A stretch of 64,000 nucleotides of DNA, taken from Vicugna vicugna (taxonomy: Eukaryota). The position numbers and the translations under genes are program-made. Location of the stretch: NCBI GenBank assembly GCA_013265495.1, contig MU057840.1, positions 1 to 64,000 of the forward strand. Direction: 5' to 3'. The notes below the pieces were generated by a model. The model saw nothing but the letters and a program-made list of their open reading frames with translations, was not told the origin of the DNA and ran no database searches. How positions within the stretch are numbered: position 1 is the stretch's first letter; each line of letters starts with the position of its first letter. Positions 16,901 through 63,587 of this stretch are shown piece after piece.

Positions 16901-17896
16901 GGTGTATTTTTTGTATTGAAGTGTGGTTAATGTACAAGATTATATTAGTTTCAGGAGTACCACATAGTGAGTCTATATTTTTGTAGATTATACTTCACTT
17001 AAAGTGATTATAAAATACTGGCTGTATTCCTGTGCTGTACAATAAATCCTTGTAACATTTATTTTATACATAGTAGTTTGTACCTTTTAATAGCTACCAA
17101 AATTAGAAATGTAAAACGAAGACGAAATCTCCTCACCCAAAAATGAGAATGTTAACAACCATTTACATAAATTAAAAATAAATGAAAATAAATGTTCATT
17201 AAAAGATGTAGACTATGATTTAAAAATGTTTGTCTTCCCTTCGTCTCAAAACCCCCTAAAATAACAAAGGAATAAAAAGGCATAAAAAGTACAAAGAGAA
17301 CAGGAGATGAAGTGACTACAGAGAGGAGATGTCAGAAAACTCTAGAAGACAGAACGTTGATAGACAAGGAGTAACTAAGAAAAAATGGCGCTAAACCTAA
17401 GTTCCTGCGGCAGAGCGTTCAGCAATAACCAGCCAACGCCTGATGGTTTCACCCTAGAAAAGGTCAGAAATGAAGTCACTAGTCGCCCCTGAAGGCGTGG
17501 GCACAGGGTAAAGTGGAAACCAAGCCTTTCCTTCTGAATGGACAGCCCAGGATCACCAGACATTTGACAAAAGTCTAAGATGAAAGCAAAAAAGAAAACC
17601 TGGAGAAAACTGAGACAATACACAAGAAGAAAAGGATCACAGACGGTGTTAAAACTTTAAGATGGAAGGCACGGGATGGTTGGTTGTGCTCCTGAAGCTG
17701 AGTGTCACCTGATGAGGTGCATGAAGAACACGGCATCACTTTTGGTGGTGATGTTCCTGCCAAACTGAAGGCTATTGCACAAAATAATTGGCTGCAGTCT
17801 TCAAAAGTATCAAGGTCATGAAAGTCAAAGAAAGACTGAAAAAACTTTTCTGACTAAAGGACACTAAAGAGATGTGACAAATGCAACACACATTCT

Positions 17897-18036
17897 TTGT
17901 TTGTTTTGGTTTTGGGGGGGAGGTAATTAGATTTCTTTATGTATTTTAACATTAAAATTAATTTTATTTTTTATTGGAGGTACTGGGGATTGAACCTAGG
18001 ACCTTGTGCACGCTAAGCACCCACTCTACTGCTTAG
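17897..18036 (-). mobile_element. Vic-1-like SINE inserted in an old L1
   Basis: ggggaggtaattag...ggaggtactggggattgaacc; flanked by the acacattct direct repeat. Confidence 0.78.
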
Positions 18037-19929
18037 CAACACATTCTGAAGTGTATCTTTTTTTTTTTTTTACTATAAAGGATATTACTGGAATGATTGA
18101 TGAAATTTAATAAAGGTCTCAGGATTGGGTAATATGAATGATTTATGTTCACTTTCTTATTTTGATGGTTGTGTTGTGATTATGTAGGAAGATGAACGAA
18201 GTACCCCATTAAGTGTATGGGGGTGATAGGGCATCAGAGGTTGGTAACTCACTCCCAAATGGGAGTTAATAAAAAAAAGTTCTTTATATTGTACTTGGAA
18301 TTCTGTAAATTTCAGATGGTTTTAAACTAAATAAAAATAATACTTATTTGTGCTTTTAAGGGGGAAATGAATAACCATTCTTACACATGGGTCTAAAAAA
18401 CTTCAAATGTAACTAATAAGATGTGTTTTGCAATGTTGTAAGAGAGTAAAAAGCCAATCATCTGGAGATCACCAATTCATTCATTAAAAATGATCCTGAA
18501 ATTGCTTTTACTCCTCCTCCCCCTGAATGCAGGCTTCTGTAAGAGCCAGCACTTTGAATAGGAATGTTTCAACCATACACAAAAATAGAAAAATGCAATA
18601 GAAACAGTAGAGCCAACACCTAGATATCACACAATGTTAACATTTTCCCATATTTGCTTCAGCTCATTTTTTAAATGAAAACTTTATTAAGACATTCACA
18701 TGTCATATAATCCCCCCACTTTAAGTGTATAATTTCACGGTTTTCAGCATAGTCATAGATTTTGTCATCATCGTCACAATACATATTACAACATTTTCAT
18801 TACCTCCAAAGGAAACCCCATATCCTTTAGCTATTATGCCCTGTCTCCATGTCTATGCCCCAACAACCACTAACCCTCTTACTGTCTCTGCAGGTTTCCC
18901 TATTCTGGACTTCCACATGAATGCAATCATACAACATGTGGCCATTAAAGTCGGCTTCTTTCACTTAGACTGTTTGTCAGGTCCATTCATTCAGAGTGCT
19001 GTGAAGCACTCTGTTCCTGAAGAGGATGAAAATTTTTTTTTTAATGAAGTTTAACTAGTCTTTGTACCTAGCTAGCATACTTGGTAAAACATTCCCTCAA
19101 TGCATTTCTAAAATTATGACCTAATTCGAACACGTTTCTGAAATAAATCTGCTTGTAAGAGTAAAATACACTAAACTTCCAAAATTGTTAACAACACTAA
19201 TTAAGGAAAACAGGGAGTTAAAAAAGGGGTCCCGCAACTGAAACAGATTCTCAGTCTGCAACCTCAAGTCCGACTCTAGTTGTGCGACCTTAGGAACCGG
19301 CTTCACCTCGAAATACATTCTCATCTGAAGAAGAGACCTGCCCTTCCCTCTCCGCAAGGCGGTGGACACGAATTTTCATAAATAGTTTGCTTCCTTCATT
19401 CAACACGAAAGACACACTCACATGAAACTTAAGGTGTAAGGGAGCCTACACATCCACAAGTCTCCGTCAGCACAAAATATGACAGGTAGCTGGTTCTAAA
19501 CAAAACAAAACAAAACAAAACACACCTTCCCCCCCGTTCGACAAACGCTTCTCAGGGATCTGGAGCCACACAAGGGAGCCTGTATGCGGTTTGCAAGAAC
19601 TCCATCAGGGCTGCAAACACACTGAGCACTAAAGGAGTAACTGGGAAAGTCCACAGCCATTGTATTACAACGTCTAGGTGCCTTTATGCTAGTACCAGAG
19701 CTCACACGCGGTAAAAGGAGAAAAAAGTCAAATTAGGCCCAACTCCAAACGACCCCTGCAGAAATCAAGACAGGAACGCCGACTTATCCTTCCTGAAGCG
19801 GGAACAGTACCACATCAACATCCACTTTAAAACTTCAAGATTGAAACACTCCACACCAACACTACTGCCGCTCATACTGCTTAGAAAGGCTGCGCAGGAG
19901 AGCAGCCCTGGCAGCACGGAAGGGGCTCA

Positions 19930-20795
19930 AGCAAAGCCGGCCGCGGAAAACGCAGGCGAGGGGGGCAAACAAGATGATTTCGGGGCTGTGCACACACGCC
20001 GCTGCCGACCGCTTTCCAGACCACGGCCCCGCCGCGAGCTTCTCAGGACTTACTGGCTTCCCAGTCGGACGTCAAGGGAAAGCCGCGCGGGGAGCACCCG
20101 GGGGTCGGGGCCCTGTTACGGTCCTCGGAGTCCCTGAGTGCCCGGGTCCCGGCCTCCACCTCCCACCCCCTCGCCACTCCCCTACTCAACGCGCCCAGCG
20201 AGGGCCGGCCCGGGAAGCGCCACGAGTAACGCCCCAGCGCGAGCCGCCTGGCTCCGCCCGAGACCCCCGGTGCGCGGACGGCGGGGCAATCCTGCTGGGG
20301 TCGGGGCCGGGCTCGCGGTTGGGGTCGCGGGTCCGGGGCCTACGCCGCAGCTGCGCCCGCCGATGCCGGACGGGGGAACGCGCGGGCGGGCGCGGCCGGC
20401 AGGCGGGGCGCGGACACTCACCACAGGACGCCGGGGGAGCCCTCGCCGGTGTAGCAGGTTGCTGGAGCGCCGCCCACGTCGAACACCTGCCCACGCACCA
20501 TCTCGGGGCCGCACCGCCGCCGCCGCCGCGCTGGACAAGAAGCTCCGCGGCCGCCGCTCGGCCAACACCGCGCCTCCCGGAGGGACTGCGCTGCCGCCGC
20601 CGCCGCCGCTGGCCGGAGGGAGCAAGGCCGGCGGGAGCAAGGCCGGCGCGGCTCGCGAGAACCGCAGAACCGCCAGCTGCTCCGACATGCTGCCGCCTGA
20701 CCGCCTGGCAAACTGACCTTAGGGTGGGTGGAGGGAGGGGCGGGGCCAGGAAGCGTGCACTCGGATTGGCTCTCGTGTCCCTGGGGGCGGGTCTG
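19930..20795. promoter_or_regulatory. CpG island and MAPK1-derived promoter (GC boxes, CCAAT, ETS-like GGAAG)
   Basis: Very high GC and CpG density; gggcgggg at about 20738, gggcgggt at about 20786, caggaagcg at about 20747, attgg at about 20766. Confidence 0.85.
20422..20745 (-). pseudogene. MAPK1: Degenerate MAPK1 (ERK2) exon 1 with 5' UTR; native ATG deleted
   Basis: Minus strand encodes EMVRGQVFDVG...YTGEG...G followed by TG|gtgagt, matching the end of ERK2 exon 1. Upstream blocks GCCCCTCCCTCC, GCGCAGTCCCT-CGGGAGG and GAGCGGCGGCCGC match the recalled MAPK1 5' UTR. Confidence 0.88.
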
Positions 20796-20863
20796 GTGTC
20801 CCTACAGATTTGTAACCTTTTTGCCTATTAGGATTAATTCTGCTGTGAATATTTGTATACAAG

Positions 20864-21454
20864 TTTTTTTTTTACACCAAAATTGTTCATTGTAATTTTA
20901 TTTGAACTTAATAGAAGAAAAAAACTAAAACAAAACTGGAGAAATTACTGCATTTCAAATGAATGTATCTTTGTGATGGGAAATCAGTAAGTAAATAAAA
21001 TTATGAAATGCATTAAGAGGTTGTGAAATAAATTAAAGACATTATGTATTTTCTAAATTCTGTATTTCCAATTTAGAAATTATCTATTGAGTCTGTTTTG
21101 AAAAGTTAACAGATTCTCTTCTACCACTGTTCTCCCCAACTCAAATTTTGAATAGTTATATATTTTAAAAACATTGTTCATGCTTCCAATATTTCAAGTA
21201 TAGTTGGTGACTATAATTCCTATGGTTTCTAAACATGTTTCAAATTTAGAACACATTCACAATTTAAAGTTAAAATAACAGAATGCTGTACATTGAGAAG
21301 TTTCACTTCCACCCTTACGACACCTTAGTTCCCCTACCATCATTAGATAACTACTTCGTTTCTTATATGGTATTTCCAATGTTTCAGATACAAGCAAAAA
21401 TGAAAATATACCTTATTTTCCACTTTTCTCACAATTATGCATTATATCATAAGG
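20864..21454 (-). mobile_element. Retroposed polyadenylated transcript fragment (processed 3' end or orphan transduction) with TSD
   Basis: Poly(T) at 20864-20873; AATAAA on the minus strand about 22 nt before the tail; flanking direct repeat ttctgctgtgaa(t/c)atttgtatacaag at 20838-20863 and 21455-21480. Confidence 0.7.
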
Positions 21455-23459: not shown

Positions 23460-24208
23460 TATTGAAGGATAGTAAGTTCACAATGTGTGTCAATTTCTGG
23501 TGCATAGCACAATGCTTCACTCATATATGAACATACGTGTATTTGTTTTCATATTCTGTTTCATCATAAGTTACTGCAATGTATTGGATATAGTTCCCTG
23601 CGAGATACAGCATGAACTTGTTTATCTTTTCTATACGTATCAGTTAGTATCTGCAAATCTCTATCAGAAAAGGAAAGTAAAGAAACAATCCCTTTTAAAA
23701 TTGCATTCAAAAAAATAAAATATTTAGCAATAAACCTGACCAAGGAAGTGAAAGACATATGTGGAGAAGCACAAAACACTGACTAAGGAAATTAAATATG
23801 ACCGAAAGAAATGGAAAGACATCCCATGTTCTTAGATTCAAAGAATTAATATTAAGATGGCCATACTACACAAAGCAATCTACAGTTTTAAAATCCCATT
23901 CATATTAAATTACCCAGGACACTTTTCACAGAACTAGAATAAATTATACTAAAATTTAAATGGAATCACAAAAGACCCAGAATTGCCAAAGCAATACTGA
24001 AGAAAAAGAACGAAGCTGTAGAAATGACTCGCAGACTTCAGACATTCCTATAGAGCTACAGTCATCAAGACAGCATGGTATTGGTACAAAACCAGACATA
24101 TGGATCAATGGAACAGAAGAGAGAGCCCAGAAATAAATCCACAAACTTTTGGTCAATTAATCTTTGACAAATGAGTCAAATACATACAGTGGAGTAAAGA
24201 CAGTCTTT
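23460..24208. mobile_element. Minus-strand L1 3' tail joined head-to-head to a plus-strand L1 ORF2 piece
   Basis: Orientation switch at about 23660 (…atctgcaaatctc|tatcagaaaaggaaag…). Confidence 0.7.
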
Positions 24209-24644
24209 CTCAGGCAGTCTGTGAAGTTATTCTCTACTTTTAATAAGCTATATAATCAGGGAGAATCTTTATGAGAAGCTGGATCATCTACATAAAATAC
24301 TTCAGTGTTGGAAGAGGCTTTCTTCTCTTTTTAAGGCATGGCGGACTATGGAATTTTAAAAGTATTTAACACTGTAGACGGAAGAGAGGGTGCATGAAGG
24401 GCAACCAAGGGCACGAAAAAATTTTTAATGACTTTCCTAAGAAGAAATAGATTGTTCCTAGAGAGATTCACCAAGTAACTTGATGGAATGAATGAGAAAA
24501 CTGCACTTATCTTACCAGAATGAAGAAATTCAGCGTATAGTAAATGTTACTAGTCAAACCAGCGTTTTGTTTTGGACCAAAAAGACAGTATTTGATTCTT
24601 GAAACTACCTACCTTACTAATGTACTAAATGAATATATTTAGTG

Positions 24645-30541: not shown

Positions 30542-30544
30542 GAT

Positions 30545-38808: not shown

Positions 38809-38949
38809 CTCCATCTCATCTGAGCTTCCAGAAGGGGCCCAGGTGATTCTGCAGAGAGAGACACGTCAGAAGCTCCGTGATCCCATGCCCCTCTGAGACT
38901 CTCTGGTGCTACCTTAGCATCTGCAGGTGTGCTGGGGCTGGTACAGTAC
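38809..38949 (-). pseudogene. COL12A1: COL12A1-like exon TVPAPAHLQ/AKVAPESLRGAWDHGASDVSL/RITWAPSGSSDEME, two frameshifts
   Basis: tggcag acceptor, gtaatg donor, 141 nt (-1, then +2 in a CT run). Confidence 0.88.
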
Positions 38950-40207
38950 CTGCCATGAGGAAAGACAGCACGACGTTTTTGGAGGTGACCTACAAACTGC
39001 ATTTAATGAAACTTGTTCTAGTTTCATGGACACGGGGAAACTGGCTGACACCATGGCTTAGAACCAAGTATCTTACCAGTTCAGTCCATTTGAAAGTTAA
39101 CTATGAGACAGGGCTCTGAAAACCACAAGCATTTTATGGATGTAATAGGTTACTATTTATATTCTACTAAAATGGTGATTTTTTTTTTAAAGCTTACATT
39201 TAGTCACACTGTTCTAACTCAGTGGTTCTTAATCACTTTGCACCTCACACTTTTGGGGGAATCTAAGGAAAACCATGGACTCCTTCACACAACAATACAT
39301 ATTAAGTACAAACTTCAGCCCACAATACAGACAGCACAGGGGCCTTCGGGGTCCATAAAATGTTCTGCTCTAAGTCAGTCACATGTAAGCTTTGCCTATA
39401 GATCACTCACCTTAAACACAACGTGCCGCTGACCATACTGACTCTATCCAGAGACAGGAATAGCCCTGCAGTGCTGGTGACACTGAAATCCCAATTAAGA
39501 GCCCTGCTACTGACCAGCAGTCTAGTTAGTTTGCAGCTCAAGCCATCTGGAATGTCTGCCACCAGTTCGGAGCTTTCATTGTCAATTTCTCTATTTGGTA
39601 ACCAAAGCCAAATACACAAAACCCAGAGCCATCAAAATACTTGTTTCTAATCATTATAATGAAAAGGCCCACTGAGATCAAGAGACTGGTACCACTTTCA
39701 CAAGCACAACTGCAAAGCAAACCAATCATAAGGTAATGCACTTTGGATGTATCTGAAAGTTCTTAGGAAATCTGAAGGATCACAAACATACATTAAAAGT
39801 ATCCCTTTGGTATATTAAATGACCTGCTTCCACTGGTCTTTCTTCCTGACATTTTCTTCTCTTGACCACTCCTGCTGTTGATGAAAAACCTGTCCCTCTG
39901 CTCATGTGGACACATTTCCATCTCTAGCCACTACCCTTCCAGGTAAGAACTAATGCCAAGAAGGCAACTGAAGTTGCTAAGAGGTATTGCCTGGCCTGAA
40001 AAGAGCAGAAGTGGGTACTGGCTGATGCTCGGAGCAGGCTGGGACACCTGACAAGATGTCTTAAGCATGGACAGACGCTGGGCCCCAAAGGAGAAGTTTC
40101 TAAGCCTCCATGAGACTTGCTGGATAGGAAGGAAAAGTCCCAGACTATAGCTCTGATCCCACCACGCGCTTCCTGGGCCAGGCTGGGCAAGTCATTTAAA
40201 TTCTCTA

Positions 40208-40512
40208 GGCCCGTGCTGTCCACCATGGGAGCCACCAGCCACATGCAGCCATTGAGTACTTGAAATGTGGCATCTGAATTGAGATGTACTATAAATGTAA
40301 ATTAATATACACTGGATTGAAAAAAAAATTACCAAAAAGATGTGAGATCTCTCATTAATAATGATACTGATAAATGTTAAAATGCTAATATTCTAGATAT
40401 AGAGTAAAACATAACACATTATTAAAATTCATTTCATTTTTCTCTTTACCTTTTCTAATGTGGCTACTAGAAAATTCTGAGTTACCTGTGTGGCCCCCAT
40501 GATATTTCTTAG
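40208..40512. mobile_element. MER33-like hAT-Charlie fossil
   Basis: gtgctgtcca...agccacatg...tgagtacttgaaatgtggc...tgtggctactagaaaatt. Confidence 0.7.
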
Positions 40513-41319
40513 GATCCTAGCTGGTTCCAGACCTCAATTTCTTAACCACTATTCAATTAGGAAATTATGTGCTGAGCACTGGGCCAGAAACTGGAGACAC
40601 AAATTGAGCAAAATAAACCTATCTCTGCCCTCATTAGGAGGGGAAAGTCCAATAGACAGAAAAAGACCAACAGGCAATGATAACTGGGTTACACACTATG
40701 CAAGTACCATGAGAGGGACAGAAAGGGATACCTATTCCTTGAAGTGGCCTCGGAATGGAGCAGGGAAGGCGGGGCCCGGGCAGGGGCCCAGCATCTCCCC
40801 CACATTTCCACTGCGGAAGTCGACCCTCCCTCTGAGAGCCACGCGCCTCACCTACCTTACATGATCTCAGGTACTGTTACCTCTGCAACGAAATCACGAA
40901 CTACTGAGGGCAAGGATGCTTAGATTTTCCTAGCCCTGATAGCACTTTACATATAGGAAGATCTCAAAACATCTGATAACTACTGCATGGTTTCCAGAGA
41001 CAATGTCCAACATACATCAAGAATATTCTTTCTCCCCACCCCTCTCCACACACACACACACACACACACAGAGACATCAAGCATCTGGAAGATGAATGAG
41101 TGACAGTGGCAGGTAGACTAAAAGGAGAGAAATTATCATAAAAGGAACGGACACAAAGATAGAAGATGGGAAGAAAATTAGCAAAAAACAGTCTAGGAAC
41201 CCAAACATTATCAAACCTGGGCAAAAAAATAACATGAAGAAATGAAGTAACCAAGGAGGTTCAGTGACACGCGCACAGTGTTGTTTCCCAAGGATCAATA
41301 AAGCGCAAGCGCAGATCAC

Positions 41320-41445
41320 GGGTGCTTTCCTGAGCAGCTCCTGGGGGAGCCCCCCGTCACACCTTGCAGAAACGCCGACTGTGCACATGGTCTGTGAGAA
41401 GAGGTCTTCAAGGGGCGTCCTGGCCCGTGACCTGTCCACCTCTAC
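41320..41445 (-). pseudogene. COL12A1: COL12A1-like exon VEVDRSRARTPLEDLFSQTMCTVGVSARCDGG/PPGAAQEST, 4-nt deletion
   Basis: cttatag acceptor, weak gtgatc donor, 126 nt versus 130 expected. Confidence 0.87.
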
Positions 41446-42394
41446 CTATAAGAGAGCCTAAAAATGCATGGACCAGAGCCATGTCTCTCACCACTGTCTG
41501 GTAAATGTCAGCCTAGGAATTCAAACAACAGAATCGTTTCCCCTGCCTCCCTTCACATCACTGCCTTATTCCTCTCAGAGAAATTCTCCTGTGTATTAGC
41601 TTATTTATTACACACAAGAAGTGAGACCCCATGGTCATTGTACTCCTTTTGAAATTGAACCCTGGAAAGAAATGAACATGTTCATGTGTATAAATGAGCT
41701 TCTGGACAACCCAAAGGAGCAGCACAGGCATAACTGGGAGCTTACAGAAACTATCTCTAGCTTCCAAAAATGCCTCTGAGATCCTCACATGAATGGCCCC
41801 TCCAGCAAACGTGTTTTAAATCCATTTGCAGCTGAAGCCCCTCGACTTGCTCCCACTTGGAAGCAGGTTGTCACGGATACAGCTCTCCACCCCCAACATC
41901 ATCTCAAAAATGCTCAGTGCCAAGGCACACTCCTCTAACATGCTATTCATGCTTTCCCTTCATCCTACTCAACTGTCCTGTACTCCTTTTACCTGACAAC
42001 CCCCCGTCTCTTTCGAGCATCCCCTTGCTAGCTCTCATTTTTAGAAACATTATTATGACAATTTTTAGTCATCCATAGATGGCAGAGCACCATAACAGGT
42101 ATCTGGACGAGAGGGAAACACCACCTAGAGTCTATAACTCTTCATCTACTAAGGGATGATGTTTCTGAGATTAACATCACACAGCAAACCATTTCTAAAC
42201 AAAATGCGAGACAGCCCAACATATTATCAATATTCTAACAGTGCTTTATTAATATATAATAGAACAAGTTTCCAACACTAGATCAATGAAATGACAAGTA
42301 TGCAAAATATGCTACCATCTATGCTTGTTTAGGTTCTTTTGTTAAACCTACTAGGAAAACAAGTATTTCTAAACCCATTCTAATCTCAACCTAC

Positions 42395-42531
42395 CTCTCT
42401 GACAACCTCTTCTGGTGTTTTGCAGCGGACAATGTATTTATGCACTTTTCCAGGGGCAGGTTCCCACAAGACATTCCTGGTGCTGCGAGTCACATCTCGG
42501 AGTTCCAGGTCTCAAGGACTGGGCAAAGGCC
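42395..42531 (-). pseudogene. COL12A1: COL12A1-like exon [44 protein letters not shown], in-frame TGA at 42512-42514
   Basis: tctccag acceptor, gtaggt donor, 137 nt. Confidence 0.9.
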
Positions 42532-44435
42532 CTGGAGATGCAGGACAAATTAGGTCCAGAAGCGGTTCTCAACCACAAAGCTCTAAAGCATCCACACAAG
42601 CTTTCAAGAAGTTGTTTGGAGAAAACTTAAAGGTGCGCAGCAGAGTAACAAACTGGTTATGATGACACAAGCACCATGATTCTACCAGGTACAGCTGCAT
42701 TCTTCTTAAGAAGGCTTCTTAAAAATACGGTAAATTTAAATTTTTATTCCAACTCTAACTTCTCTATGTTAAATTTCTTCTACTCTATTTAAATAAGTCT
42801 TATTTGTTGCTCGGCTATAATAAAGCATAATTCACCATTAAGTGTATAGCTCATGTTTCTTTACAGATAGTTACAGCAGTTCAGAAAGAAATCAAAATCG
42901 GCGATATGCTCCCTTAAGAATGTTACAGAAAAACAAACGGTTACAAGGGTGAAGGGTGAAGATGAGCTGAACTTCAGCGCAGAAGTCTAAACGGTTGGGA
43001 GAAAATCCCCATGAAAAATCCACGACGTTATTGTGGTACAATCTCTGTACAGTAAACTACACATATTTTAGATGCACAATTTGATGAATTTTGACAGATG
43101 TGGACACCTATGAAGCCACCACCACAATCAAGAGACCTAACATTTCCACTGGGAGTTTGAAATTTGCACTTGGAGATTTTCTTCTGCTCTCTGAGACATC
43201 TCTCAGTCTTTCTAGCTGTCTATCTAACCAAGTTCCTTTGTCTCTTTCAGCTCTGTGCATCTCTCTTCCCGAATCTCTGTCTCCACCTCTGTCCCTTCAG
43301 TGTTTTTGTCTCTGTGCCCTCCCATCCTCTGCTGCTGCAGTCCAGACCCACATCCCAACCTAGAACCACACTCATCTCTCCTCGCACCGTGACTCTTGGG
43401 ACTTCTCCCCCAGCACTCCCAGCACACGCCTCCACCCCTGGCTGGCTCCTCACTCTTCCCATCTGCCACCACTCCACTCCTGCAGACCACCAGCTCCCGA
43501 GAGGACCCAACATATACAAGACAATTACTTGCTGTCAATTAACGTCTCCTGCCCCACCTTGCAGGTGCTTCTTTTCTGTCTCACCATGCTTGTCTCATCT
43601 CCTTCCCCCGTTGAAGGCTCTTTCCAACATCTTAATTTCCTCAGAAATGTGAGCTGAGATTCTTGACATTTAAGCCATCTCATTCATCCCAGTGTGCCCA
43701 CCTCAAGAAGCAAGAAACAAAACTAGGCAAGGCCAGGGTCCTAGATGCAATCACTGACACTTTTCAAGAAATAACACCTAAATGCTACTGACACAAACCA
43801 GGAACACAAAAGGGGCTGAGCACACACATGAGAAGTGCAAACCACGAAGGAGTCCATGTGCTCCGTGCTGTCTGTATTATTCATTCCCAACACCTAAGCA
43901 CAGGACTGGAGTGTCCTAGATGATCAGTATGTTGTGACATTGAGTTTGTTGATTAAATAATTTACTTAACTGAAAGAGATTACTCATATGTGCCACAGAA
44001 TTTCTACTTCAACAAGAATGTGGAACATCTTGATCTTAAACTTAGTATCTTCCACCAAAACTGCACTCACCAAACATTCCTGTCTCGCCAGTGCTATACA
44101 CCATCTTTCATGGATCTACAACATAGACTGTAAGATGCTCCAATCCTTTCTGTCTTATTCCCCGACTGACACCTCACCAAAAACAACTGTCAGACACCAC
44201 TCAAAATCAGGCATGTTTAATACGGAAAGATAAATGCAAATCCTAGAACCAATGCAAGATGCTGCCGCAAGGCTAGAAATTATCTTAATTCTCAAATTTG
44301 ACTGCAGTAAGTAATTATCCTGTAACTTATGTACAAATGATCAAATTATTGTTGGCATCATCGAGTAGAAGAAACAGCCTAACAAACATGATGTTCACAG
44401 CAACAAGGGAAGAAGGAAAACCAGCGACGTCTTAC

Positions 44436-44565
44436 AGGTGACCTCCCTTGTGCTGACAGGTTCGCTGGCGAGGTCACACACGATGGCCTGGACCATGACC
44501 GTGTACTCGGTGTTGGCAAAGAGCCCCCTCAGCAGCATGCCGCTCACTGTCAGCCCCACTCGCAT
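44436..44565 (-). pseudogene. COL12A1: COL12A1-like exon MRVGLTVSGMLLRGLFANTEYTVMVQAIVCDLASEPVSTREVT; open
   Basis: tctgcag acceptor, gtaaga donor, 130 nt, phase 0-1. Confidence 0.9.
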
Positions 44566-44624
44566 CTGCAGATGGACATGCCGAAGGGAGTGAGATGCTC
44601 AAATTACACTAACTTGTAACCACT

Positions 44625-45062
44625 AGATTTTGTTTTCTTTTCCATTATACTTTATCAAAAGATATTGATTACACTTCCCGTGTACACAGTAGGTCTTTGT
44701 TGTTTTATCTCTTTTATATATAGTAGTGTGTATCTGCTAATCCCAAACTCCTCATTCTTCCCTCCCCTCTTTCCTATTTGGTAACTGTAAGCTTGTTTTC
44801 TGTACCTGTGAGTGTGTTTCTGTTTTGTAAGTTCATTTGTATCATTTTTTTAGATTCCATATGTAAGAGATATCATACAATATTTATCTTTCTCTGTCTG
44901 ACATAGTTCACTTAGTGTGACAATCTGTATGTAGGTCCTTCCATGTTGCTGCAAATGGCATTGTTTCATTCTTTTTTATGGCTGAGTAATATTCCATTGT
45001 GTGTATGTGTATGGATAAAGATGAATATTCCACTTATTTATCCATTCATCTGTCCATAAACA
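44625..45062 (-). mobile_element. L1 3' fragment inside a COL12A1-like intron
   Basis: ttagattccatatgtaag...ttttatggctgagtaatattccattgtg. Confidence 0.8.
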
Positions 45063-45282
45063 TGCACATGAGACAACTTTTATTTTTCATTTCTCTGAAC
45101 TGCTTTTCCTTTCTCATGCTAGTGTTTCCTAAGATGTGTCATGGGCCACAAATCTAACCTGTTTTTCTATTTCACATGTAAAGATATATAAATGAGTTCG
45201 TAAGTCACTGCTGTTTCATGGAGACTCTAAAACAGTGAGGTCTTAGGAAGACCCAAAGATAAAGAAAACAAACATCTCCCAC

Positions 45283-45425
45283 CTCTTTGGGTTTGGTCGG
45301 TTCTATGGCATTAATGGGTTCATATAACAAGGTGTATCCAGCAGCCCCTCCCACTGGCTGCCACTGGACCTGCCTGGTGGTAGAGCCAACATCATAAAGA
45401 TTGAGGCTGACTACAGGGACTGGTA
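45283..45425 (-). pseudogene. COL12A1: COL12A1-like exon [47 protein letters not shown]; open
   Basis: cctacag acceptor, gtggga donor, 143 nt, phase 1-0. Confidence 0.92.
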
Positions 45426-46888
45426 CTGTAGGAATGTAAAAGCAGACATCAGTCTAATTCCTCTTACTCTGCTCATTTTTCAATTGCTGTCTCCCACTTA
45501 ATCATTGATATCTGTACGTACTAAATAGAGAAGGGATTGCTGTGAGAAATCAGTGGGAGTTAATACAATTCTTTCCTTTCCAAAAAAAAAAGCTCCTCAG
45601 GCTCATTGTTTATCTCCACCTCATACCCAGGGACTTCATGTTATAACTATTTCACAGAGAAAAGAAGTTTAAACTTAAAACGCCATTCCAGTGAGTCCAT
45701 ATGGCAGCCAGAACAGACCAACCTCCTGAGATTTTGATCTGTTTTTCTGGAACATCTTTAAGTTGATTTTTGTTCTTCAATCAGAGAATTTCATACATAA
45801 AAAACCAACACAGTATTTCATTTCATCCTTCTTTTTTAAAAATTTTAAACAAGCGTGCCATATACTAGTAAGTGAAACCTAGGGGACGATGGGCTTTTTG
45901 TAGATCAGCCCATGAGGCAGAGTAAAAGGTTTACAGTCTCCTCTTCATGTAGCACCCACACAGCTTTTTATTTTTTGTCCAAAGATTAAGTTTAAGGTTT
46001 TAAGGAACTATCAGATTAATCCTGCCCATTATGAAATACATTACTTCCCACCTCTGCTGGTCTAACATGAAAGGAAATGAGAGAAGGGATAAGGACCTAA
46101 GAGACCGGGCAGTGAGTAGGGTCAATTCTTGCCTTGGAAAGAGTTACGCCCACTCCTTCCTCTTACGAGCAACCTCCCTCCTTCCCAGAGACCAGCCAAG
46201 AAGATGGGAGGAGGAAAGGGTATTTTCATATGGCTTCAGACACCCTACCGGGAAGAGGAGTGAGGAACATCTTGCCCAAAAGCTCTACTCAAAGCCAAAG
46301 CCATCAGAGCTTCTCTAGCAAAGGCCAGAGTCCAAAAGGCAGGGGAGAAAAAGGGGAGATCTCACTGCCAGCATGAAGATCTGGCCACGTGCAGCACTGA
46401 ACCCGGTCATTCCTGCACAGCTGCTCTTCAAGAAAATCCTAGACCCACTCCCTACACGGTCTCTTCCCTTAAGAAGTGGAGAACTACTTGTAGATAGGTC
46501 ATGGTTAGAGTAAAAGCCATATAGTTTAGGTGCCTAAGCAAATGACATTTTGGGTGTTGACAGCTCTGATTTCATTAATAAATTGTAAGTAATTCTAAAA
46601 ACGTGAAGAAAAAAAGTGTGTAACTGAGAAGGGTACTTTTCCCCATGAGGTATCTGTGGCCATGACTACCCATTCCACCCCTGGGGCCCCGTGACGGCAG
46701 GACCAGTCAGCGCAAGCAGAAAACCACACGGTGTTTGTCGAGCACGAGCAGCGCACTCAGTAACTGTGCGCTGAATGGATACTGAATAAAGGAATGCTTC
46801 GGAAGGCTGACAAAAATCCCACATGGACTTTCACCTCTTTATCTTAAAAAATAAAACAAGAAGATCTTTTTTTAAAAAATGGACTTAC

Positions 46889-47000
46889 AGGTTTTTCTGT
46901 GTCCTTCATCCTCTACCACTGAAGACATGTCAACAACGCACTCAGTGTCGGGCTTCAGGTCTTTCAGGACTGCGCTACTTTCCAATCGGCTCACGTAAAA
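46889..47000 (-). pseudogene. COL12A1: COL12A1-like exon [37 protein letters not shown]; open, 18 nt shorter than expected
   Basis: ccccctag acceptor, gtaagt donor, 112 nt, phase 0-1. Confidence 0.9.
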
Positions 47001-54033: not shown

Positions 54034-54114
54034 CTCGTAACGAACAAACTGGTCCATTTTCTTGATTCTTAGAGCGCTTACTTCTGAACTGACTTGGAAT
54101 ATCTAATGAAAGGT
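54034..54114 (-). CDS. USP3: USP3 exon (DLSLDIPSQFRSKRSKNQENGPVCSLR); last USP3 exon found
   Basis: tttttaag acceptor, gtaaag donor, 81 nt, phase 1-1. Confidence 0.92.
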
Positions 54115-54278
54115 CTTAAAAAGAAAGGAAAACAGATGACTGTTAAAAGCTTGTAACTACACTCAAAATACATCAGTTTTTGAAATTATTTTTTAACATT
54201 TATCTCTTTACTGCCTTCATTTTCAAAGGAAACATTACAGTTATTATTTTAATACACTATCATGCATCCAGATGTAAA

Positions 54279-54385
54279 ATAGGAATGGATCAAAGTTTCT
54301 AGATTCTGTCCCACATATGAGGCAGTTAACTTCATTTTGGAGAATGCCTCCGAATATTGCCGTGATGACTGTAGATGCTCCATTT
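54279..54385 (-). pseudogene. USP3: USP3 exon lacking its splice donor (NGASTVITAIFGGILQNEVNCLICGTESRNFDPFL)
   Basis: ttctttag acceptor is intact; after CCA TTC CTA the minus strand reads TTTTACATC with no GT. Confidence 0.88.
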
Positions 54386-57310
54386 CTAAAGAAAATCAAC
54401 ACACAGGAAACTCAGTAAAAAACCTAAATGTGTCTAAGAGCTCCTACAGGTGACTCCCTTTGGGGGGACATATACATCATATATACTCATTTAAATTTTA
54501 AAAATACAAAACTTTCAAAGCTCTAATAGATGTATACGAAATAAAAGGTATAAGCCACTGACTGGCCTTCCCCCAGCCCTCTTTCAGTCTCACTACTTTC
54601 TCCACGAGCAACACTGAACGCTTGCCGTTACTAACAAGCAGATCACGCACATGCCTGTTCTCAGGGCAGGCGGGCCCCTTTCTTCCCAAGCGTACCCTCA
54701 GGAAAGAGGGGGCTGTACACTGCAGCCTTTGCAAAGCCTCCTATTACTCAGGCAGCTCTCTCACTTTACTCTGAACAACAACTTCCATCAAAGGTGGTTT
54801 TAGATTTTTGAGATGGTCAGATTTGGGGCGGGGGTAAACAAATTTAATACATATTTAGTAATTACTGATGGAGGTATCAGTTTACAGTTGGAGTGCCAGG
54901 TGTTACTGTCAACAAGCCTTTTAAAAAGCTCACTTAAAACACTTATAATTCCACCATTATCCCCATTTCTCAGACCAGGAAGCTGAGGTTCAAAGGTTAA
55001 GTAACCTGGTCCAAGTTCACACAGCTGGTCTGACATGAGCACCTACTCTTAACATTGCGCTCCTTCTCTGAACTGAACCAATATTAATGGATACTGAGGA
55101 TGCTTCATTAACAGGACTGCAGCAGACACATACCCTCACCTAGTGCACTAACACACATGACGGCACTTCTGCAGTTACTTAGGCCTGTGATTTGCTCTTT
55201 TTTCTTAACAGCAATTTGAGGTGGTTTCTGTCACTTATAATCAGTAACACTTCCAGCACACTGAACTGTACTGTGAGTTGCTCCAAGCTAAACCTATTGC
55301 AGAGACAGACAAAACCTACCCAAGCAATTCTCTTCTTTTTAAAGTTTGCTTCCTCTTCTAGGAAAGGGCTTCCTTCCTTACTGGCAGAAGAAATATAATG
55401 GCTTTTTTTCTTAAAAGTTGTTCATAAGATATATGGCTTTAGTTAATTAAAAAGGGAGGATACATTAGGAGTTACAGGATATAGTGGCTATTTCAGGTTT
55501 TAGATCTAATGGCTGTCATAAACCAAGGATACATTTTTTAAAAAACTACTGAAAATAAAGGGCCTGTGACTGATCCGTTCATACTGATGTTCACATACAC
55601 GGCTGCCTTTAATTAAAACGGAAACTGCCTTATTACAAAAACAATACATTTAAACTCCGTGTACTTCTTCCTTTAGAATTGCTTCATCTGAAAAAAAGAC
55701 ATTAATCAAGTCTTGGCCATCTGACGTGTATGACATTAATTTTAGGTATACAATGACTGAAAACAAGATCTGCAGCTGATTTCAAAATCGCTGCTCCATT
55801 TGTTATACTGCACACCAAGAGTGTTTCCATACTGGCTACTTGGACAGGCTGTTATGCTGCGAAGGTCCTTTTTATTGGCACTAATGATTTTCTACACATT
55901 AAAAAAACCATCTGCCATTTATGTCTACCACCCCCACCCCCACCTTCAGTAGGGCTGGATGTGTTTATACAAGTAAATAAATACTGCACAGGAAATCTGT
56001 TTTTGTAGTTTTAGCAAATACAATCCTGATCCTCAAATGTATCCAGTGAATTTAAGAAAATATAAGGAAACCTCATTTTGAATATCTGACATTAATTTTT
56101 TGTTCCTAACTCACTAAAGGAATGTACAATTACTATTCTTGAAAATACTATAAGAATTAATATTGAAAACTCATTAGTTACTGAAAGGATACCTTGTAAA
56201 TGTCACACGCTCACTCCAACAGGGCACCTGGGTGTCAAATAATAAAGACCCCCCCCACTTCACACAGACTGTCTGTGATAGAACCCAGCCTAATCTCCCC
56301 TGGGCCGGAGCGCACCAGCATCAAGGTACAGAGTGGTTTTCACTGACTGCCGTGTGTAATTTGGTGCTGGCAGCAAGGACAGTGCCCCCAGGTCACAGGC
56401 CCCTTCCCTTCTGTACTGGAGTCTAATGCGAATCTCAGCCACAGGACCTGGAGGGCCAAGCATTTGAAGAAGTAGGCAGTTCTTAGTGCCCGCTGACAAG
56501 GCCAGGGTCGCTGTGAGATTGCTCTCTGATTAAAAAGCCCCATCTCACATGAAATCTGATTTGTGGACGGCCAGGCAGTAATACTGCAGCCGCCCCTGTA
56601 TATTACTTACTCTTTCGCTCTTTCTTTGGGGAGTCTGCCTTATACGTTCCTTTCCTGCACAGGTCAATGTAAAACTTTTTTTTTTATCTGAGCAATAGGA
56701 GACTACAATTAACCAAAATCCAAGCTGAAATACAACTCAACTATCCCTTCCTCAAGCAAAACAAACATTCTGAACTCCATGTACATTTGGGGGCCTTAGT
56801 ACCTGGGAAAGCTAACTAAAAGGTCTGTTTTGTTCATATTGAGAGGCAAGAAAGAATTCTGAAAACGTACAAATGCCTCAATTTGATTAAAAAACAGACA
56901 TATTCTAGGAAAATTTGAGTCCAAAATGAGGCTTTAGGAAAATTCACATTGAAAATATTGTAAGCTTTCGTTATCAGTGAACAAATTATTTCAGTATATG
57001 AAAATTAAGTTGCCTACCTATTATTCAGTACATTTGGAGGAAAATTTTTAAATACATAAATTGTAAATAAGTTAAAATAATTTATAGTAAATAACAATCT
57101 AGCTACACCAAGATGGAAATAATTACAAGATGCCTCTGGTCTAGAAGCAGGAGACATGTGTTAGTCCACTTGGTCACAAAGTTCAAGTGCACAAAAGTTT
57201 CAGCAGAGGTCCAGGAACATTCTCCGCTGTCCATTACAAATGCAATAAACTATAACAGCCATAGGAATGCCTCAAGTCTTCCTAGAAAGCAAAAGGAAGC
57301 CAAATCTTAC

Positions 57311-57457
57311 ATGCAATGTTTGTTACTTGCAGACACAGCAGAATTCTCCTGCAGCATTGCTGAGCGGGAAATCCCGTTGAAACCGCCCTGGAGTTCCAAG
57401 TGCAGGTGGTCGAGCAGGTAGCGCATGAACTCGTGGGCGTCCTGCTGCTGATGGCCC
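57311..57457 (-). CDS. USP3: USP3 exon with QQDAHEF motif (GHQQQDAHEFMRYLLDHLHLELQGGFNGISRSAMLQENSAVSASNKHC)
   Basis: ctccaag acceptor, gtaaga donor, 147 nt, open frame. Confidence 0.93.
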
Positions 57458-59639
57458 CTTGGAGCAAACAGAAACTGTCAGTCCCCGTGCGGCCCCGTGG
57501 GCCCCGCTGGAGCGGGAGGGCAGCGCGCCCAGAAGGGCTGCTGCTCAGAGCTCAGGGAGGCTCCCTGCTCCTTCCTCCACGTGTTATACATTAAATTCTC
57601 TTCAAGAAAGAGTTCTATAACTTAAAAACAAGTCTGAAAATACGAACTACAACCAGAATTTCCCTCAATACATATTTTCCCCCTTTCCTTAAGTTTCTTC
57701 TGGAAATTATAAATTATGGAAATGATCTGCCTAATCAATGGAACTTAAATCAGAAGTCAATTTAGCATTTCACTGTAAATGTTTCTATTTAGCAACTAAA
57801 TATCAACATATGTTCAAGCATTTCTTATAAGATTATTATGAATAAAATGCTAAAATTCAGTCAAAAGTATTCAAAGTTAATAGTTCCTTTCGATATCCAA
57901 GGAGGTGCTTTAAACTTTTTCAACACAACTTTTTTTTCGTAACTCAAAGGTAAGATTAGTATTTCCGGTCACATCTCAAATTCTATCACACATAAAAATG
58001 TTTTTTTCTCTTACCAAAATAACCTAGTGTCTAAGCATTTTCTAAAATGGATCATGAAAATTAGGACCTTGTAGTTACACCAATTTGCATTTTCATCAAA
58101 CACACATCCATCCCTTTTTAAAACAATCTGCCACTGTGCATTAACAAGTATATGGACTTGTACTTGCATAAATAATATACATTATCCAAGTATATGTGCT
58201 TGTACAAGTAATGTACATTGTACATTAACAAGTATATCCAACCACACCATGATTCTCTTGATTCTCTTTTCTTGTATCAAAATACATTATTTTCTTATGT
58301 TCCCTTTACCATTAGAAACACATTTTTTCACCTACAGGAGATCATGGAACACTCAGCTGTTTTATAAAGGTTTATAAAGATAAGTTACAGGCATCTGTTT
58401 CAATTTGTGACCTTCCCCAGACAACAAAAAGCCTCTATTTCTAAGACTAGGAAGTGCTTTGATTCTGACTAAACAGAAGTTATTTTTATATAATAATAAA
58501 ATAGAAATATTAAATCTCTATCAACAGTCTGAATAGGTGATTGTTAGAAATTTTCTAATAAATCTGAGCCTGATTAATGGTAACTTAACAGTCATTTCTA
58601 CCTTTCTATTTAGAGTCAAGAAATTCTATGATTCTTGCAAAATTAGTCTCACCTGAGAGGGGATTTAAATGACATCAAACATAAAAGAAGTTTCCTTCAC
58701 AACAAAGACCAGGGTAATGAGAGTCAACTACATCTGATCCTCAAGGCTAGACTCTTCAGTAAGGCAACAAATCACAGTCCTTTAAAGTTGTTACCCTTTA
58801 AACATTTCTCCAAACTATCAATACATCTAAACCACTGTTAGGCAATATAGCCAGACACATTGCTGTCTCACTACAGCATGCTGTTTAAAAAGAAGGAGAG
58901 AGATGTACTTCAGGTGCCAAAACCATGACTAGGAAGAACCACGACTTGCTTCACAAGGATAAAATCAGCAGAAGGTGGCAAAGGCTGCTGTCAAACACCT
59001 GCAGGGCCTCAAATCTGCTGACACCTGATTCCCCACAGGGATGACCAGCCTAGGGCAAGAGGGCACATCCTCTAACAGCACGGCTGGCTGCCCACTCACA
59101 CAAGACTATACAGAGAACGTAGAAAACACGGTGACTTTACAGCCACATTAGAAGGTGACCCTGGTCATCGTGCTACCTCCTGGAAAGTGAATCCCAGTGG
59201 ACTTCACTCGTCTTCTAAGGTCTTCAGAATCCAGAACAGTGAATACAATACCAGTTTTATACTGACTACATGTGGAATTTCTTTTAAGTTGAAATAACAA
59301 TATAGTGTACGATGATAATTATTGCTTACAAGATTTTGAAAGAATCAAGGAAAATGTGTCCAGTTTGTTTTCCAAAGGCACATAAATTATTTAGAAGGGC
59401 TTTGGTTTTATACAACAAAATGTCCTACCCTCTAGTTAAAGACATTTCTAAGGTCTACCTATTATTTATATAAACACATTTATCTAGTTGAATATATCGA
59501 ACTTCTGCTCTTCTTTTAAAAAGCCAACACACACTAGCCTTTATTGTTTAGAATACCACCACTTTGTTGGAAATTGTCTCAGGAACAGAGTAAGGACTAA
59601 TATTAATATTTCAAATAGCCCTCATTACATAATACTTAC

Positions 59640-59753
59640 CTCAAATTCGGCATAATCCTCCAAACAACATAAAATAAGGACTCTGGGCTAAAAGCAGTCT
59701 GGCTACCCTGCCATGAAGCACACAGTGTCTTTCTAAACTCTTCCACCAAAGAC
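59640..59753 (-). CDS. USP3: USP3 exon (SLVEEFRKTLCASWQGSQTAFSPESLFYVVWRIMPNL)
   Basis: tttccag acceptor, gtaagt donor, 114 nt, open frame; three substitutions versus recalled human (L>S, K>R, F>L). Confidence 0.93.
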
Positions 59754-60509
59754 CTGGAAAAGAGGAAGGGATGATGGTTCCCTTAACATTTAGTGAGAGG
59801 CTACTATTTCAATACACAATGTTCAGTTGTCTGAAATTCGTAATAAAAAATGAAGACATAAAAAGGCTGTGGTCTCTTCTGAACGAAGTCTGACAGTTAA
59901 GTAATAGCATCTCAAAAACCCACATAAACAGCAGTAATTACTGACAAAACTAGTTTTTTAACGTATAGTGAACTCTGAGTTTGCCAAGTACTGTCATACT
60001 TGTAGAATAAACCAATGGGTAGGTTACAAACCAATTAGTTAAGAATGTTCATTTTAAAAAACTTAAAATAAGGAACAGCATCTTTCTTCTTCTCCTTCTC
60101 GTCGTCGTCTTCTCCATTTTTCCTTCTTAGCCCTCACTAGGAGCACTCTTCCCAGACCTCAGTGTGTGACCATCTGCTCATCTCTGCCTCAGAGAGTTCA
60201 TCTGGACTCAAGGATCAACATTCAAGTTTATACCAATGACTCTCAAAGCCAAATCTGAAAGCCAGATTTTTTCATCACCGCTTTGATTCAGGAGTCTCCC
60301 AGTTCCAACAGGAATTCTCTACTGCATGTCCTCTTGTCTCTTGAGAAGCAGTGTGCACTAAACCTGCTCTCTGCATCCTCCCTGCTGTCCCTCTATATCC
60401 GATCGCCCCTTCTCTCACAGGAATACAACTTCCATTTTCTCCTTTGAACGTGTCCAACTTCTGAGAAATTTCCTTAAAGAGAAAGAGTAGCCCTTCTTGT
60501 TAAGCCCTT

Positions 60510-60760
60510 CCTTCTTCCTTCTAGCTAGAATGAGGACGAAATGCTGCTGCTCCAGCATCACCCTGGACTCTGGATGAGAGCCTCACCCCAGGGAGGGTGC
60601 AGCAGAGCGCCAGAAGGAGCCTGATGGTCGTGTGAAATAAACCTAGATGGATAACCTCCAACTTGACGTGAGAAAATAAACCACGAAAGTTCAAGTCACT
60701 GTCAGTCTTGGTTTTCTGTGCACGGAGGTCAACTGATAAACGTCCACTTCAGACCGTGTC
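60510..60760 (+). mobile_element. MLT1-like (MaLR) LTR fragment
   Basis: agagcgccagaaggagcctg...gtgagaaaataaac...ttcaagtcactg. Confidence 0.45.
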
Positions 60761-62155
60761 CGTCACTTCAGCTGCCGTACTCACGGACACCTGCCCGATG
60801 CCCCCGAGGATCTCAACCCCCGTCATCCAACAGGTTCGTGTCTCTTACTTCCCAGCCCCTGAACCCTCTTCCTGTGTTTGAGGAGCCCCACCTGAAGGGT
60901 CTTGTGGGAGTCCGAGCCTGCCTCCCACTACGGAAGCTGCAAAGGCCAGATACTTGCTTTCTCAGCACCCCTGGCAGCCAGGACTTGGGCACGTGGCCTG
61001 GGTTCTGCCTCTGTGAAGCAGGAGTTAGTGATGCAAAGAAGCCGCGACAGTGCCAAATCCTTCCTGGTGGCCAAGAGCACCATCGGGAGGGCAGGGACAG
61101 CAGTGACAGCAGCATCCAGCCGGCACCCAACTCCAGCCGTGCGGGCAGTGGGACCTCCGCTGCGGCCCTGGGCAGGGGTCCTGATGAGACATCCTTATGC
61201 AGGCCTGGACTCCAGACCCCATTTTCTACCCATCCAGTAACGGTGAGCTCACCAACACGCTTTCCGGACATTCCTTTTCTGCCGAAGATGGCCAGAGGCA
61301 ACTTCTGCAATGTGTAACTACACCCTAAACGACGCTAATGCATCGAGTGCTCCTAATTCTTCCCGAACTTCTGTGCACGTGTAGTTCTTCCTTGTCATTT
61401 CACCGTTTCCTCTAACCAATTACTCTAAAGTGTGAAGTCTCCTGGAACACAGCACGCTCCAGCTCATCCATGTGCTGCTACTGAATTAAGCTCCTGACAC
61501 AGCGCTTCCAGTGAGATCACGCCCTCCCTGCTCCCGTGCCCGGCGTGGGGGTTCCCGCCCACCCTGGCCTGCTGCGCGCTCCGTGCTGCACACTGTTCTA
61601 GCACGGTCTCCTGTTCCCCCTCAGCCATCAAGGCTTTCATAATATGATGCATCTTTAAACCCAAACGAGAACATGGCTGCACTGAATTTGAATGCATATT
61701 GGTTTGGTTCAATTGTCAATTTTTTTCCCTTCCACTTCACATAAAAATTGACTGTACTGCCCCCGCAAGTAATTTGGTAACTACAAATTAATTTAATTAT
61801 CCAAGACCAGTTTACCTAACCAATGCAGACAAATCAATTCACAAAGCCTAATGATACTCATGCTGGTCTACACCCATAACTGTATTTCATACACACGTCA
61901 CTTTTAGAATGTCCAAATCCACAGACCCAGCAGGTAGACAGAGTACTAAATTTATCCTGCCTATTAGGTAAATAGACACAAAAGAATCCCAATAATTATT
62001 AAGACTGCCAGCTAGATACTTACATGCAATTTTTAGAAGAAGAGGCTGTTTTTGAAATGCATGTGCCTATTAACTCGCATAATGCAATGGAAATCACCAG
62101 TAAGGGTCATTTGCTCAGCAGCTCAAAGCCAGAAAGGACACATTCTTAGACTCAC

Positions 62156-62269
62156 ACGTTGTTGTCCCCCTGGCTCCTGGTGTGGTACGTCCGCCTTCCT
62201 GCTGTCTTCCCATTCCTTAACTCCACGGCGGGCAGTTCTTTGAAATAACAGCAAAACTGCTCAATGTTA
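62156..62269 (-). CDS. USP3: USP3 exon ([37 protein letters not shown])
   Basis: aaatag acceptor, gtgagt donor, 114 nt, open frame, phase 2-2. Confidence 0.93.
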
Positions 62270-63009
62270 CTATTTTAAAAGGAAGGGAAGAAAATTATTT
62301 TTTTTAATGTACTAAGACTGTGAAGAAAGTACTCTGAGACCTACATACGGACTTTGAAAATGTCACCTTTCAATTTCTCATTAGAACTGTACCTCAGTGC
62401 AATCTCTTCACTAAGTCTCCTCATTTACTCCAAGAAAACAATAGAAGCAGATGACTTTGCAGAAATAAAGACCTCAGAGCAAAACGTCTGTTCAAAAAAT
62501 CCCCAAGCCCCTCTCCTCCCCGCACCCCCAACACACACACACACAATCTATAGACTGCGGTCATTTCTTTTCAGGGTGTTTGCTCCCAAGCGTTCAATAA
62601 TTTCCTCAAATAAAAACAAATCACGAAACCAACCACACTGTTTAAATACGCCCCACAGAGTCACCAGGAGAATTCAGCAGTGACTAGAACTTCTTCCTTG
62701 AGCAAGACTAGGCAAGTCAGTACCTAGTAAAGTTCAGTACCTTTAAGGAGAGACTGAACTCGGCTTCTGCTCCTCATTAGCAAGGTGGCCTTGGGAAAAT
62801 ATAATTTATTCTGGTCTTTGATGCCACATTAAAAATCTAAAAGTACACAACTTTCAAAATAACTTCTTTTATGTACCAGGTCAGCCTTGTTGTCAGTTTT
62901 ATTTTTACTGCTCATCTTACATTTTCAAGATCTTCTAAACCTCTGATCTTATGACCATACTTAAGAATGAATCATTGAACCAAGTTCTCTGAACAAGGTT
63001 CCTTATAGC

Positions 63010-63208
63010 CCAGGAGTCTGCAAGCTGTGGCCCACGGGACAAATCTGGCCCTGCACCAGTGAGCTTTTACATTTTTAAAGTGGCTTCTATATTTCTGAAG
63101 AGTTGTGTAAAACGGAGGGGCTGCTGAAGGGAGGAGACTGGATGTGGCATGCAAAGCTTAAAAAGATGTATTTAACCTGGCCTTTTACAGAAGTTTGCAG
63201 GCCTGTGC
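63010..63208. mobile_element. MER58-like DNA transposon fossil (another at about 5010-5192)
   Basis: caagctgtggcccacgggacaaatctggcc...ctggccttttacagaagtttgc. Confidence 0.6.
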
Positions 63209-63239
63209 TCAACCCTATTCGAGAAGCAACAGGAACCAA

Positions 63240-63450
63240 ATAATAATAACAGCTAACAGTTATTAGCTGCCAGGCACTGTTCTAAGCACTTTGTACAAAT
63301 TGTGTAATAGCTTCCCAACCACCCTGTGAGGTTCACTACTATCCCCCATTCCACTGATGAGAAAAGCAAGGCACAGGGAGCTGGGGTACCTGCCCCAAGT
63401 TCCTAGAGTTAGTGGCAGAGACAGGATCGGAACCCACTGCCTTTGCTCCT
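63240..63450. mobile_element. MIR (others at about 35230-35440 and 54890-55050)
   Basis: ccaggcactgttctaagcacttt...caaccaccctgtgagg...cctgccccaagttcc. Confidence 0.7.
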
Positions 63451-63504
63451 AACCGTTCCACTCGAAACTGATGTCAGGTACTTAGGCTCTGGCTGTAACA
63501 TTAC

Positions 63505-63587
63505 CTGAGGGACTGAAGGATGGCATTCATGAAACACGTGTTCCCCAAATTCCGCAGGCCTGTGGCACAGATGGCAGTGGTGCTTCC
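63505..63587 (-). CDS. USP3: USP3 exon with catalytic Cys box ([27 protein letters not shown])
   Basis: ttttacag acceptor, gtaatg donor, 83 nt, open frame with [12 protein letters not shown] motif. Confidence 0.95.

Follow-up and report, generated by a model that had tools for sequence, protein, structure and literature searches.

The locus described here raises the question of whether a decayed copy of MAPK1 exon 1, with its promoter motifs, CpG island and splice donor in place, is inert debris or part of a promoter unit still in use. The window, that is the whole stretch of DNA analyzed, consists of 64,000 nucleotides of contig MU057840.1 from Vicugna vicugna, and all positions refer to it. 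Our best overall explanation, to which we give a probability of about 0.7, is a duplicated, spreading and partly active promoter-exon cassette. By every test run the cassette is a duplicated pseudogene fragment, and comparison of the sequences makes it close to certain that it is a multicopy duplicate with a real deletion of the start codon.

Structure of the exon-1 copy

The MAPK1 exon-1 homolog consists of 5' UTR and a decayed coding part, and occupies 20422..20740 on the minus strand. Its 5' end (~20740) is approximate and follows the human MAPK1 start site. The frame EMVRGQVFDVG...GEGSPG on the same strand matches ERK2 chains in PDB (best ERK2 E 3.4e-4). Kelch-type PDB matches to the exon-1 frame were rejected as low-complexity chance. 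A query in the ERK2 frame gave nothing at E<=0.01 among 311 candidates. Neither metagenome contigs nor viral contigs contained the coding motif of the exon (0 matches in each set), and no native MAPK1 DNA was recovered there. The UTR contains a 15-bp tandem duplication (2.5 copies, 20611-20648) that is missing in the closest dromedary model.

Ten or more substitutions and a net loss of 3 bases have accumulated in the 80 coding bases of the window copy. A frame-shifted stretch (-1 then -2) at 20454..20474 (minus strand) stands in place of GPRYTNLS, with seven codons where ERK2 has eight, which fits a -1 plus a -2 change. The Gly-rich loop reads GEGSPG, as the preliminary description had it, and this is confirmed in the ERK2-matching frame. 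Given the -1/-2 shift and the loop substitutions, the intact exon-1 kinase sequence (GPRYTNLSYIGEGAYGM) is not found in the window copy. The same description took the change in PRYTNLS for a compensated -1/-2 shift. Both shifts are seen, but they are two separate events: the -2 shift is present in all subgroups of the related camel copies, and the -1 shift only in the subfamily of the window copy. By hand reading, the -1 together with a +1 before Glu12 marks the window copy and the camel models P0001, P0003 and P0005/P0007. Met13 is kept in P0001, P0003, P0005 and P0007. The window copy is assigned to this subfamily, which is linked to AUH.

Loss of the start codon

The UTR block ends in a single (GCG)5 tract at 20515..20529, followed by CCC GAG ATG (P-E-M) at 20507-20499, all on the minus strand. 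This fused tract marks the place where the native start codon was deleted and where the window copy is 60 nt shorter than the wild-camel (C. ferus) locus LOC116663347. A functional ERK2 start, with Met1 followed by the poly-Ala N-terminus, is absent from the window copy. The ERK2 N-terminus can be aligned to one sister copy with no gap; Met1 is replaced by Val in that copy, and the window copy has TTG there. With TTG exactly at the Met1 position, protein alignment alone cannot separate a deletion from a point loss. In the model of LOC116663347 (P0024), SCPA and PE are separated by 27 codons, an Arg run and PGSQHGGG among them, and in the window copy by 7. P0024 thus retains 20 codons between both GCG runs that the window copy lost, and this extra segment shows that the deletion in the window copy is real. 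A point mutation of ATG to TTG was rejected because P0024 carries additional sequence at that place. The earlier observation that the UTR tract abuts the poly-Ala side, with the native start segment gone, is borne out both by this model and by the run of (GCG)5 into CCC GAG ATG.

The placement of the deletion between two repeat runs is well supported, and slippage or microhomology would be its cause. Judging from the possible codons, the native ATG may be contained, out of frame, in the Q-H-G of P0024, with a CGG run on one side and a GGC run on the other. The human UTR agrees in register and would imply a loss of ~40 nt. The start segment is missing in 10 of the 11 camel loci. P0024 has some substitutions in common with other, deleted subgroups, so either the deletion occurred twice or conversion between copies moved it.

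Within 20380-20800 the only ATGs are at 20688 and 20501, with none between these two. The loss of the ATG proposed earlier therefore applies to Met1 but not to the whole exon, which keeps the Met13 ATG (20499..20501, minus strand) and has gained another at 20688. The Met13 codon lies 80 nt from the donor, in phase 2 as in the native gene. The new upstream ATG has an A at -3 and opens an 89-codon frame up to the donor (20422..20688, minus strand, phase 0). This is the frame of most of the camel fusion models, which have Leu at the ATG position where it is covered.

A family of copies in camels

The exon had been taken for a lone orphan, a view contradicted by 11 sister loci in three Camelus species. 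A query with the 89-codon frame returned nine matches at E<=0.001 among 1.84 billion representatives, and all nine are Camelus RefSeq models annotated as 'uncharacterized'. Two further protein searches returned 3 and 9 matches, in the same three species only, and added two loci. The family consists of 11 LOC models (3 dromedary, 5 Bactrian and 3 wild camel), which occupy three contigs of different length in each species, and none of the Camelus matches is marked as the window's own protein. These matches, like a tRNA-Ala-type SINE in the window, mark the DNA as camelid. The closest relative is dromedary LOC116153408, at 89% over the matched stretches and 77% by BLASTP. Three near-identical loci lie on one Bactrian contig. 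Among models P0002, P0006 and P0023, two tandem cassettes occur within a single model; the second of them is an internal exon, flanked by adenylyl-cyclase and GRID2 exons.

The window sequence itself recurs in sequencing data. Of 238 exact 31-letter words sampled from 19000-21200, a fraction of 0.55-0.75 is present in each of fourteen DNA runs, which come from 6 studies and carry three organism labels; the best of the 14 may be the source sample. Five RNA runs hold 0.10-0.20 of the sampled words and were given no weight as expression evidence. These DNA runs, together with the same lesions in the sister copies, uphold the suggestion that the locus is a transplanted duplicate and neither the native gene nor a sequence error. 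No paper describing a camelid MAPK1 cassette family was found in the literature searched, mostly outside subscription journals, and none of the papers listed for the ERK2 promoter has that phrase. The accessible parts of PMC7288448 and PMC9614664 contain nothing on the family.

Promoter motifs and CpG island

The core promoter motifs lie at 20738..20790 on the minus strand. They comprise a GC box at 20790-20785, a CCAAT box at 20769-20765 and a GC box at 20743-20738; both GC boxes read CCGCCC, and there is no TATA box. Camel models P0002, P0009 and P0021 align across this part. The splice donor GTGAGT, a strong one, is at 20416..20421 (minus strand). It is followed by the 5' part of intron 1 (19790..20421, minus strand), which is common to the C. 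ferus copies and of which stretches at ~20040-19900 (P0024) and 19925-19790 (P0023/P0027) serve as cryptic exons. Parental promoter and intron sequence are thus kept, as in an unprocessed pseudogene. A retrocopy (processed pseudogene) was rejected because the donor and intron and the CCAAT and GC boxes are present. The CpGs, GC boxes, CCAAT box and gtgagt donor said to persist in the preliminary description were all located.

The CpG island spans 19930..20795 (866 bp), with a GC content of 0.75 and a CpG o/e of 0.97, against thresholds of at least 500 bp, at least 0.55 and at least 0.65, respectively. Strict criteria return two CpG islands in the whole window, including this one. The island holds 117 CpG and its TpG+CpA o/e is 0.99, i.e. 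there is no excess of TpG or CpA. In the flanks the CpG o/e is 0.25-0.28 and the TpG+CpA o/e 1.21-1.25. Within the 80 coding bases the CpG o/e is 0.89 despite their divergence. Methylated CpGs would largely decay over divergence of that size. The simplest reading of this absence of decay is that the island is hypomethylated in the germline, which we consider very probable.

Base composition suggests an additional influence. Replacement changes in the window copy are W>S 5 to S>W 1 (P 0.093 under equal rates, 0.014 under a twofold AT mutation bias), and family-wide minimum events are W>S 13 to S>W 6 (P 0.061 and 0.001, respectively), small counts made by hand from the proteins at codon positions 1-2 only (26 A/T and 28 G/C sites). 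They are suggestive, not firm, indications that GC-biased gene conversion also helps to keep the island. A study of 52 placental mammals reports such conversion at hypomethylated islands in most of them; its main text names no camelid (PMC11161765). Silent duplicate genes with CpG islands occur in human, according to the accessible part of another report (10.1101/2021.05.26.445678). Because of the GC-directed excess and of such silent duplicates, retention of CpGs is no proof of promoter use.

Splicing in the camel models

The camel models exit the cassette at the donor. Its donor-end residues are carried by 26 of the 27 fetched proteins; the partner changes there, and alignments to the window mostly stop at 20422-20419. 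The partners include AUH exons (E 9e-31 and 6e-13), a GRID2 exon (E 1e-43), an adenylyl-cyclase exon (Pfam AC_N; presumably ADCY1), and EGFR kinase exons, beyond which follows an RA-domain piece that we take to be ARHGAP20. In P0008, P0009 and P0021, from the dromedary and wild-camel annotations, multicopy EGFR kinase exon pieces are joined to the RA-domain gene piece. Other models use cryptic exons within the cassette's own intron, matching window positions 20040-19790. Several loci have many isoforms (X1-X7, X8, X12), with exon skipping and cryptic exons without protein homology. The same junctions recur across separate annotations (ferus and Bactrian; ferus and dromedary).

The support for these junctions is automatic RefSeq annotation. 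The available text of two reports describes Gnomon as mixing alignments with ab initio prediction, so that it can join exons without RNA (PMC12605758, PMC3882889). Isoforms often escape ab initio prediction, and their number depends on supported models (PMC12605758); isoform sets and cryptic exons like those of the camel loci are seldom produced by prediction alone. The models are thus indirect support for splicing, and the donor is probably spliced in some copies. In many models, among them P0001, P0002 and P0003, the coding sequence opens before the CCAAT box is reached or the cassette is an internal exon, and such models are no proof that the cassette promoter starts RNA.

None of the partner exons of the camel models was found in window 1-19700, i.e. 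in the ~20 kb downstream of the cassette. Pfam gave no match in any of 76 minus-strand ORFs below the donor (at least 45 codons, outside repeats, within these 20 kb of downstream sequence). Predicted ORFs on cryptic acceptors in the window end at 95-120 aa. We would put the odds of the window copy being an active promoter at about even.

Surroundings of the cassette

Intron-containing pieces of unrelated genes adjoin the cassette, and a stop and a lost donor are found among them. The first is a set of decayed FN3-repeat exons with introns (38810..47000, minus strand), presumably from COL12A1, with exons at 47000-46889, ~45420-45283, 44565-44440, ~42530-42410 (containing the stop) and ~38848-38810. 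The second consists of ubiquitin-specific protease exons (54034..63587, minus strand) at 63587-63505, ~62100-62024, 59753-59640, 57457-57290, ~54370-54270 (no donor) and 54114-54034, which we take to be USP3. The Pfam UCH domain was found in 2 of 99 ORFs scanned, all on the minus strand and taken from a list of 235 or from hand-picked frames. L1-rich DNA separates the cassette from both pieces upstream. As read from this arrangement, the surroundings of the cassette form a duplication mosaic.

The FN3 exons are consecutive, with many replacements and a stop, and lie on the same strand as the USP piece upstream of them; a read-through chimera from USP to FN3 is possible. The six USP-type exons are nearly intact, although one lacks its donor and none of the later exons was seen, and look like a younger duplicon than their neighbors. 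An exon-like open stretch between the two pieces (51915-52015, minus strand; SSDFFLDNAECDELEL...) runs up to a GT donor and has no Pfam match.

Proposed history and alternatives

The explanation that we favor begins with a duplication at the DNA level, probably in a camelid ancestor, that took in the promoter and first exon of MAPK1 together with 0.6 kb or more of intron 1. The cassette would then have spread over several chromosomes inside mosaic segmental duplications, of which the family of copies and the mosaic around this one are the observed outcome. Kinase coding was presumably killed by the early -2 frameshift and the loop substitutions. The start-codon segment, whose absence is seen directly, would have been deleted afterwards between two CGG/GCG runs, by slippage or microhomology. 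The base counts suggest that the island escaped germline methylation, with biased conversion as a probable further push toward GC. The RefSeq models suggest that the promoter motifs and donor work in at least some copies, with splicing to any downstream acceptor. The products would be mostly non-coding or junk-ORF chimeric RNAs containing AUH, adenylyl-cyclase, GRID2 or EGFR pieces or cryptic exons.

If the exon were the native one and its GC-rich DNA had been misassembled or misread, some indels in G runs would be accounted for, and exon 2 could sit beyond the window start (native intron 1 is long). However, independent Camelus assemblies show identical lesions, 14 DNA runs each contain at least half of the exact 31-letter words, and the upstream neighbors are broken USP and FN3 pieces and not the PPM1F side expected from synteny. 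Since the sister copies share the lesions, those of the window are not sequence errors, and we regard a native exon as extremely improbable. It is also possible, although we think it unlikely, that the cassette merely hitch-hiked in larger duplications and that no copy starts transcription. CpG-rich DNA would then be unmethylated of itself and attract recombination with GC-biased conversion, and the RefSeq junctions would reflect read-through or ab initio joining. The GC-directed replacement excess fits such debris, as do the many models in which the cassette is internal or the model begins upstream of the promoter, the absence of a partner downstream in the window, and the frequency of biased conversion at hypomethylated islands in placental mammals (PMC11161765, in its accessible part). 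It is harder to reconcile with the many isoforms and cryptic exons at several loci in three species, and with a donor and CCAAT and GC boxes that are intact while the neighboring coding bases are heavily changed.

Conversely, some copies might be selected new genes, translated as shifted-frame fusion proteins, and the cassette might have spread by supplying expression, as a camelid core duplicon. In every subgroup one frame runs without a stop from the UTR as far as the donor. Within the subfamily of the window copy the +1 and -1 compensate each other in this frame, partner exons are joined in their native frame, and the window copy has its ATG with A at -3 in the open frame. However, sequence of 75% GC is open by chance and the odds of frame restoration are one in three. 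Gnomon picks the longest ORF, and isoforms differ in frame (P0003, P0005, P0023). The partners are small broken pieces, and ORFs on cryptic acceptors in the window stop at 95-120 aa. We judge selection for such proteins to be quite improbable. A bolder form of the favored history makes the cassette a portable promoter specific to camelids. As an unmethylated hotspot of recombination it would further its own copying, be kept GC-rich by biased conversion and repeatedly switch on unrelated gene fragments, some of them translated as selected shifted-frame fusions. We hold this combination to be doubtful.

If the duplicated, partly active cassette is the correct reading, it would be an independent camelid case in which a single housekeeping promoter-exon is spread across chromosomes and the constant part is the promoter and not a coding core. 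Its roughly one dozen natural replicates could indicate whether a CpG island persists only where it is transcribed or selected, or whether hypomethylation together with biased conversion suffices. A set of 'uncharacterized' camel RefSeq proteins would be explained as chimeras, and the copies are a warning of mis-mapping at camelid MAPK1 exon 1.

Comparison with known systems

To our knowledge, borrowed promoters and core duplicons have been described mostly in primates; NBPF1, for example, is said to have taken its promoter from EVI5. It is unusual that, outside the primates, a single promoter-exon is linked to four or more unrelated partners. As annotated for sister copies only, the camelid cassette would resemble the primate borrowed-promoter fusions in its working. 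An unprocessed pseudogene fragment with a CpG island likewise keeps promoter and intron beside a disabled frame, but the camelid cassette exists in many copies, and annotation repeatedly has it spliced to parts of other genes.

The published cases, as far as their accessible text goes, each share only some of these features. NPEPPSP1-TBC1D3 is also a promoter-bearing partial duplication upstream of another duplicated gene, with spliced fusion transcripts (PMC12871316). There, one promoter serves one partner family and long reads support it, whereas the camelid cassette has at least four unrelated partner genes, by annotation only. In LRRC37, promoters of unrelated genes (BPTF and DND1) were reused via segmental duplication (PMC3371713), but there a single recipient family draws on different promoters; in camelids a single promoter-exon is joined to different recipients. 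HYDIN2 has juxtaposed incomplete duplications, fusion transcripts, diverse splicing and ORFs under relaxed selection (PMC5345166). Unlike the camelid cassette, it acquired its promoter at the landing site and involves no multicopy promoter cassette. Primate core duplicons are segments common to many mosaic duplication blocks and tied to new transcripts (PMC3530683). However, their blocks are intrachromosomal and carry coding exons of gene families, whereas the camelid cassette is spread over several chromosomes and has lost its own coding function. The primate definition, a segment among the most abundant in the intrachromosomal blocks of one chromosome, fails for the cassette because its copies lie on three contigs per species, with one contig carrying three loci.

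Other features of the window

A second, weaker CpG island (61111-61630) lies in an intron of the USP piece and could be a scar of biased conversion. Two small exon-like units with good splice signals occur at 13280-13395 (plus strand), downstream of a GC-rich stretch at 12580-13250. Related copies of an LTR-like repeat are found at 13496-14208 and 36699-37148, and several L1 3' fragments at 8641-12293 and 23666-34596. The window also contains a tRNA-Ala-type SINE, presumably Vic-1.
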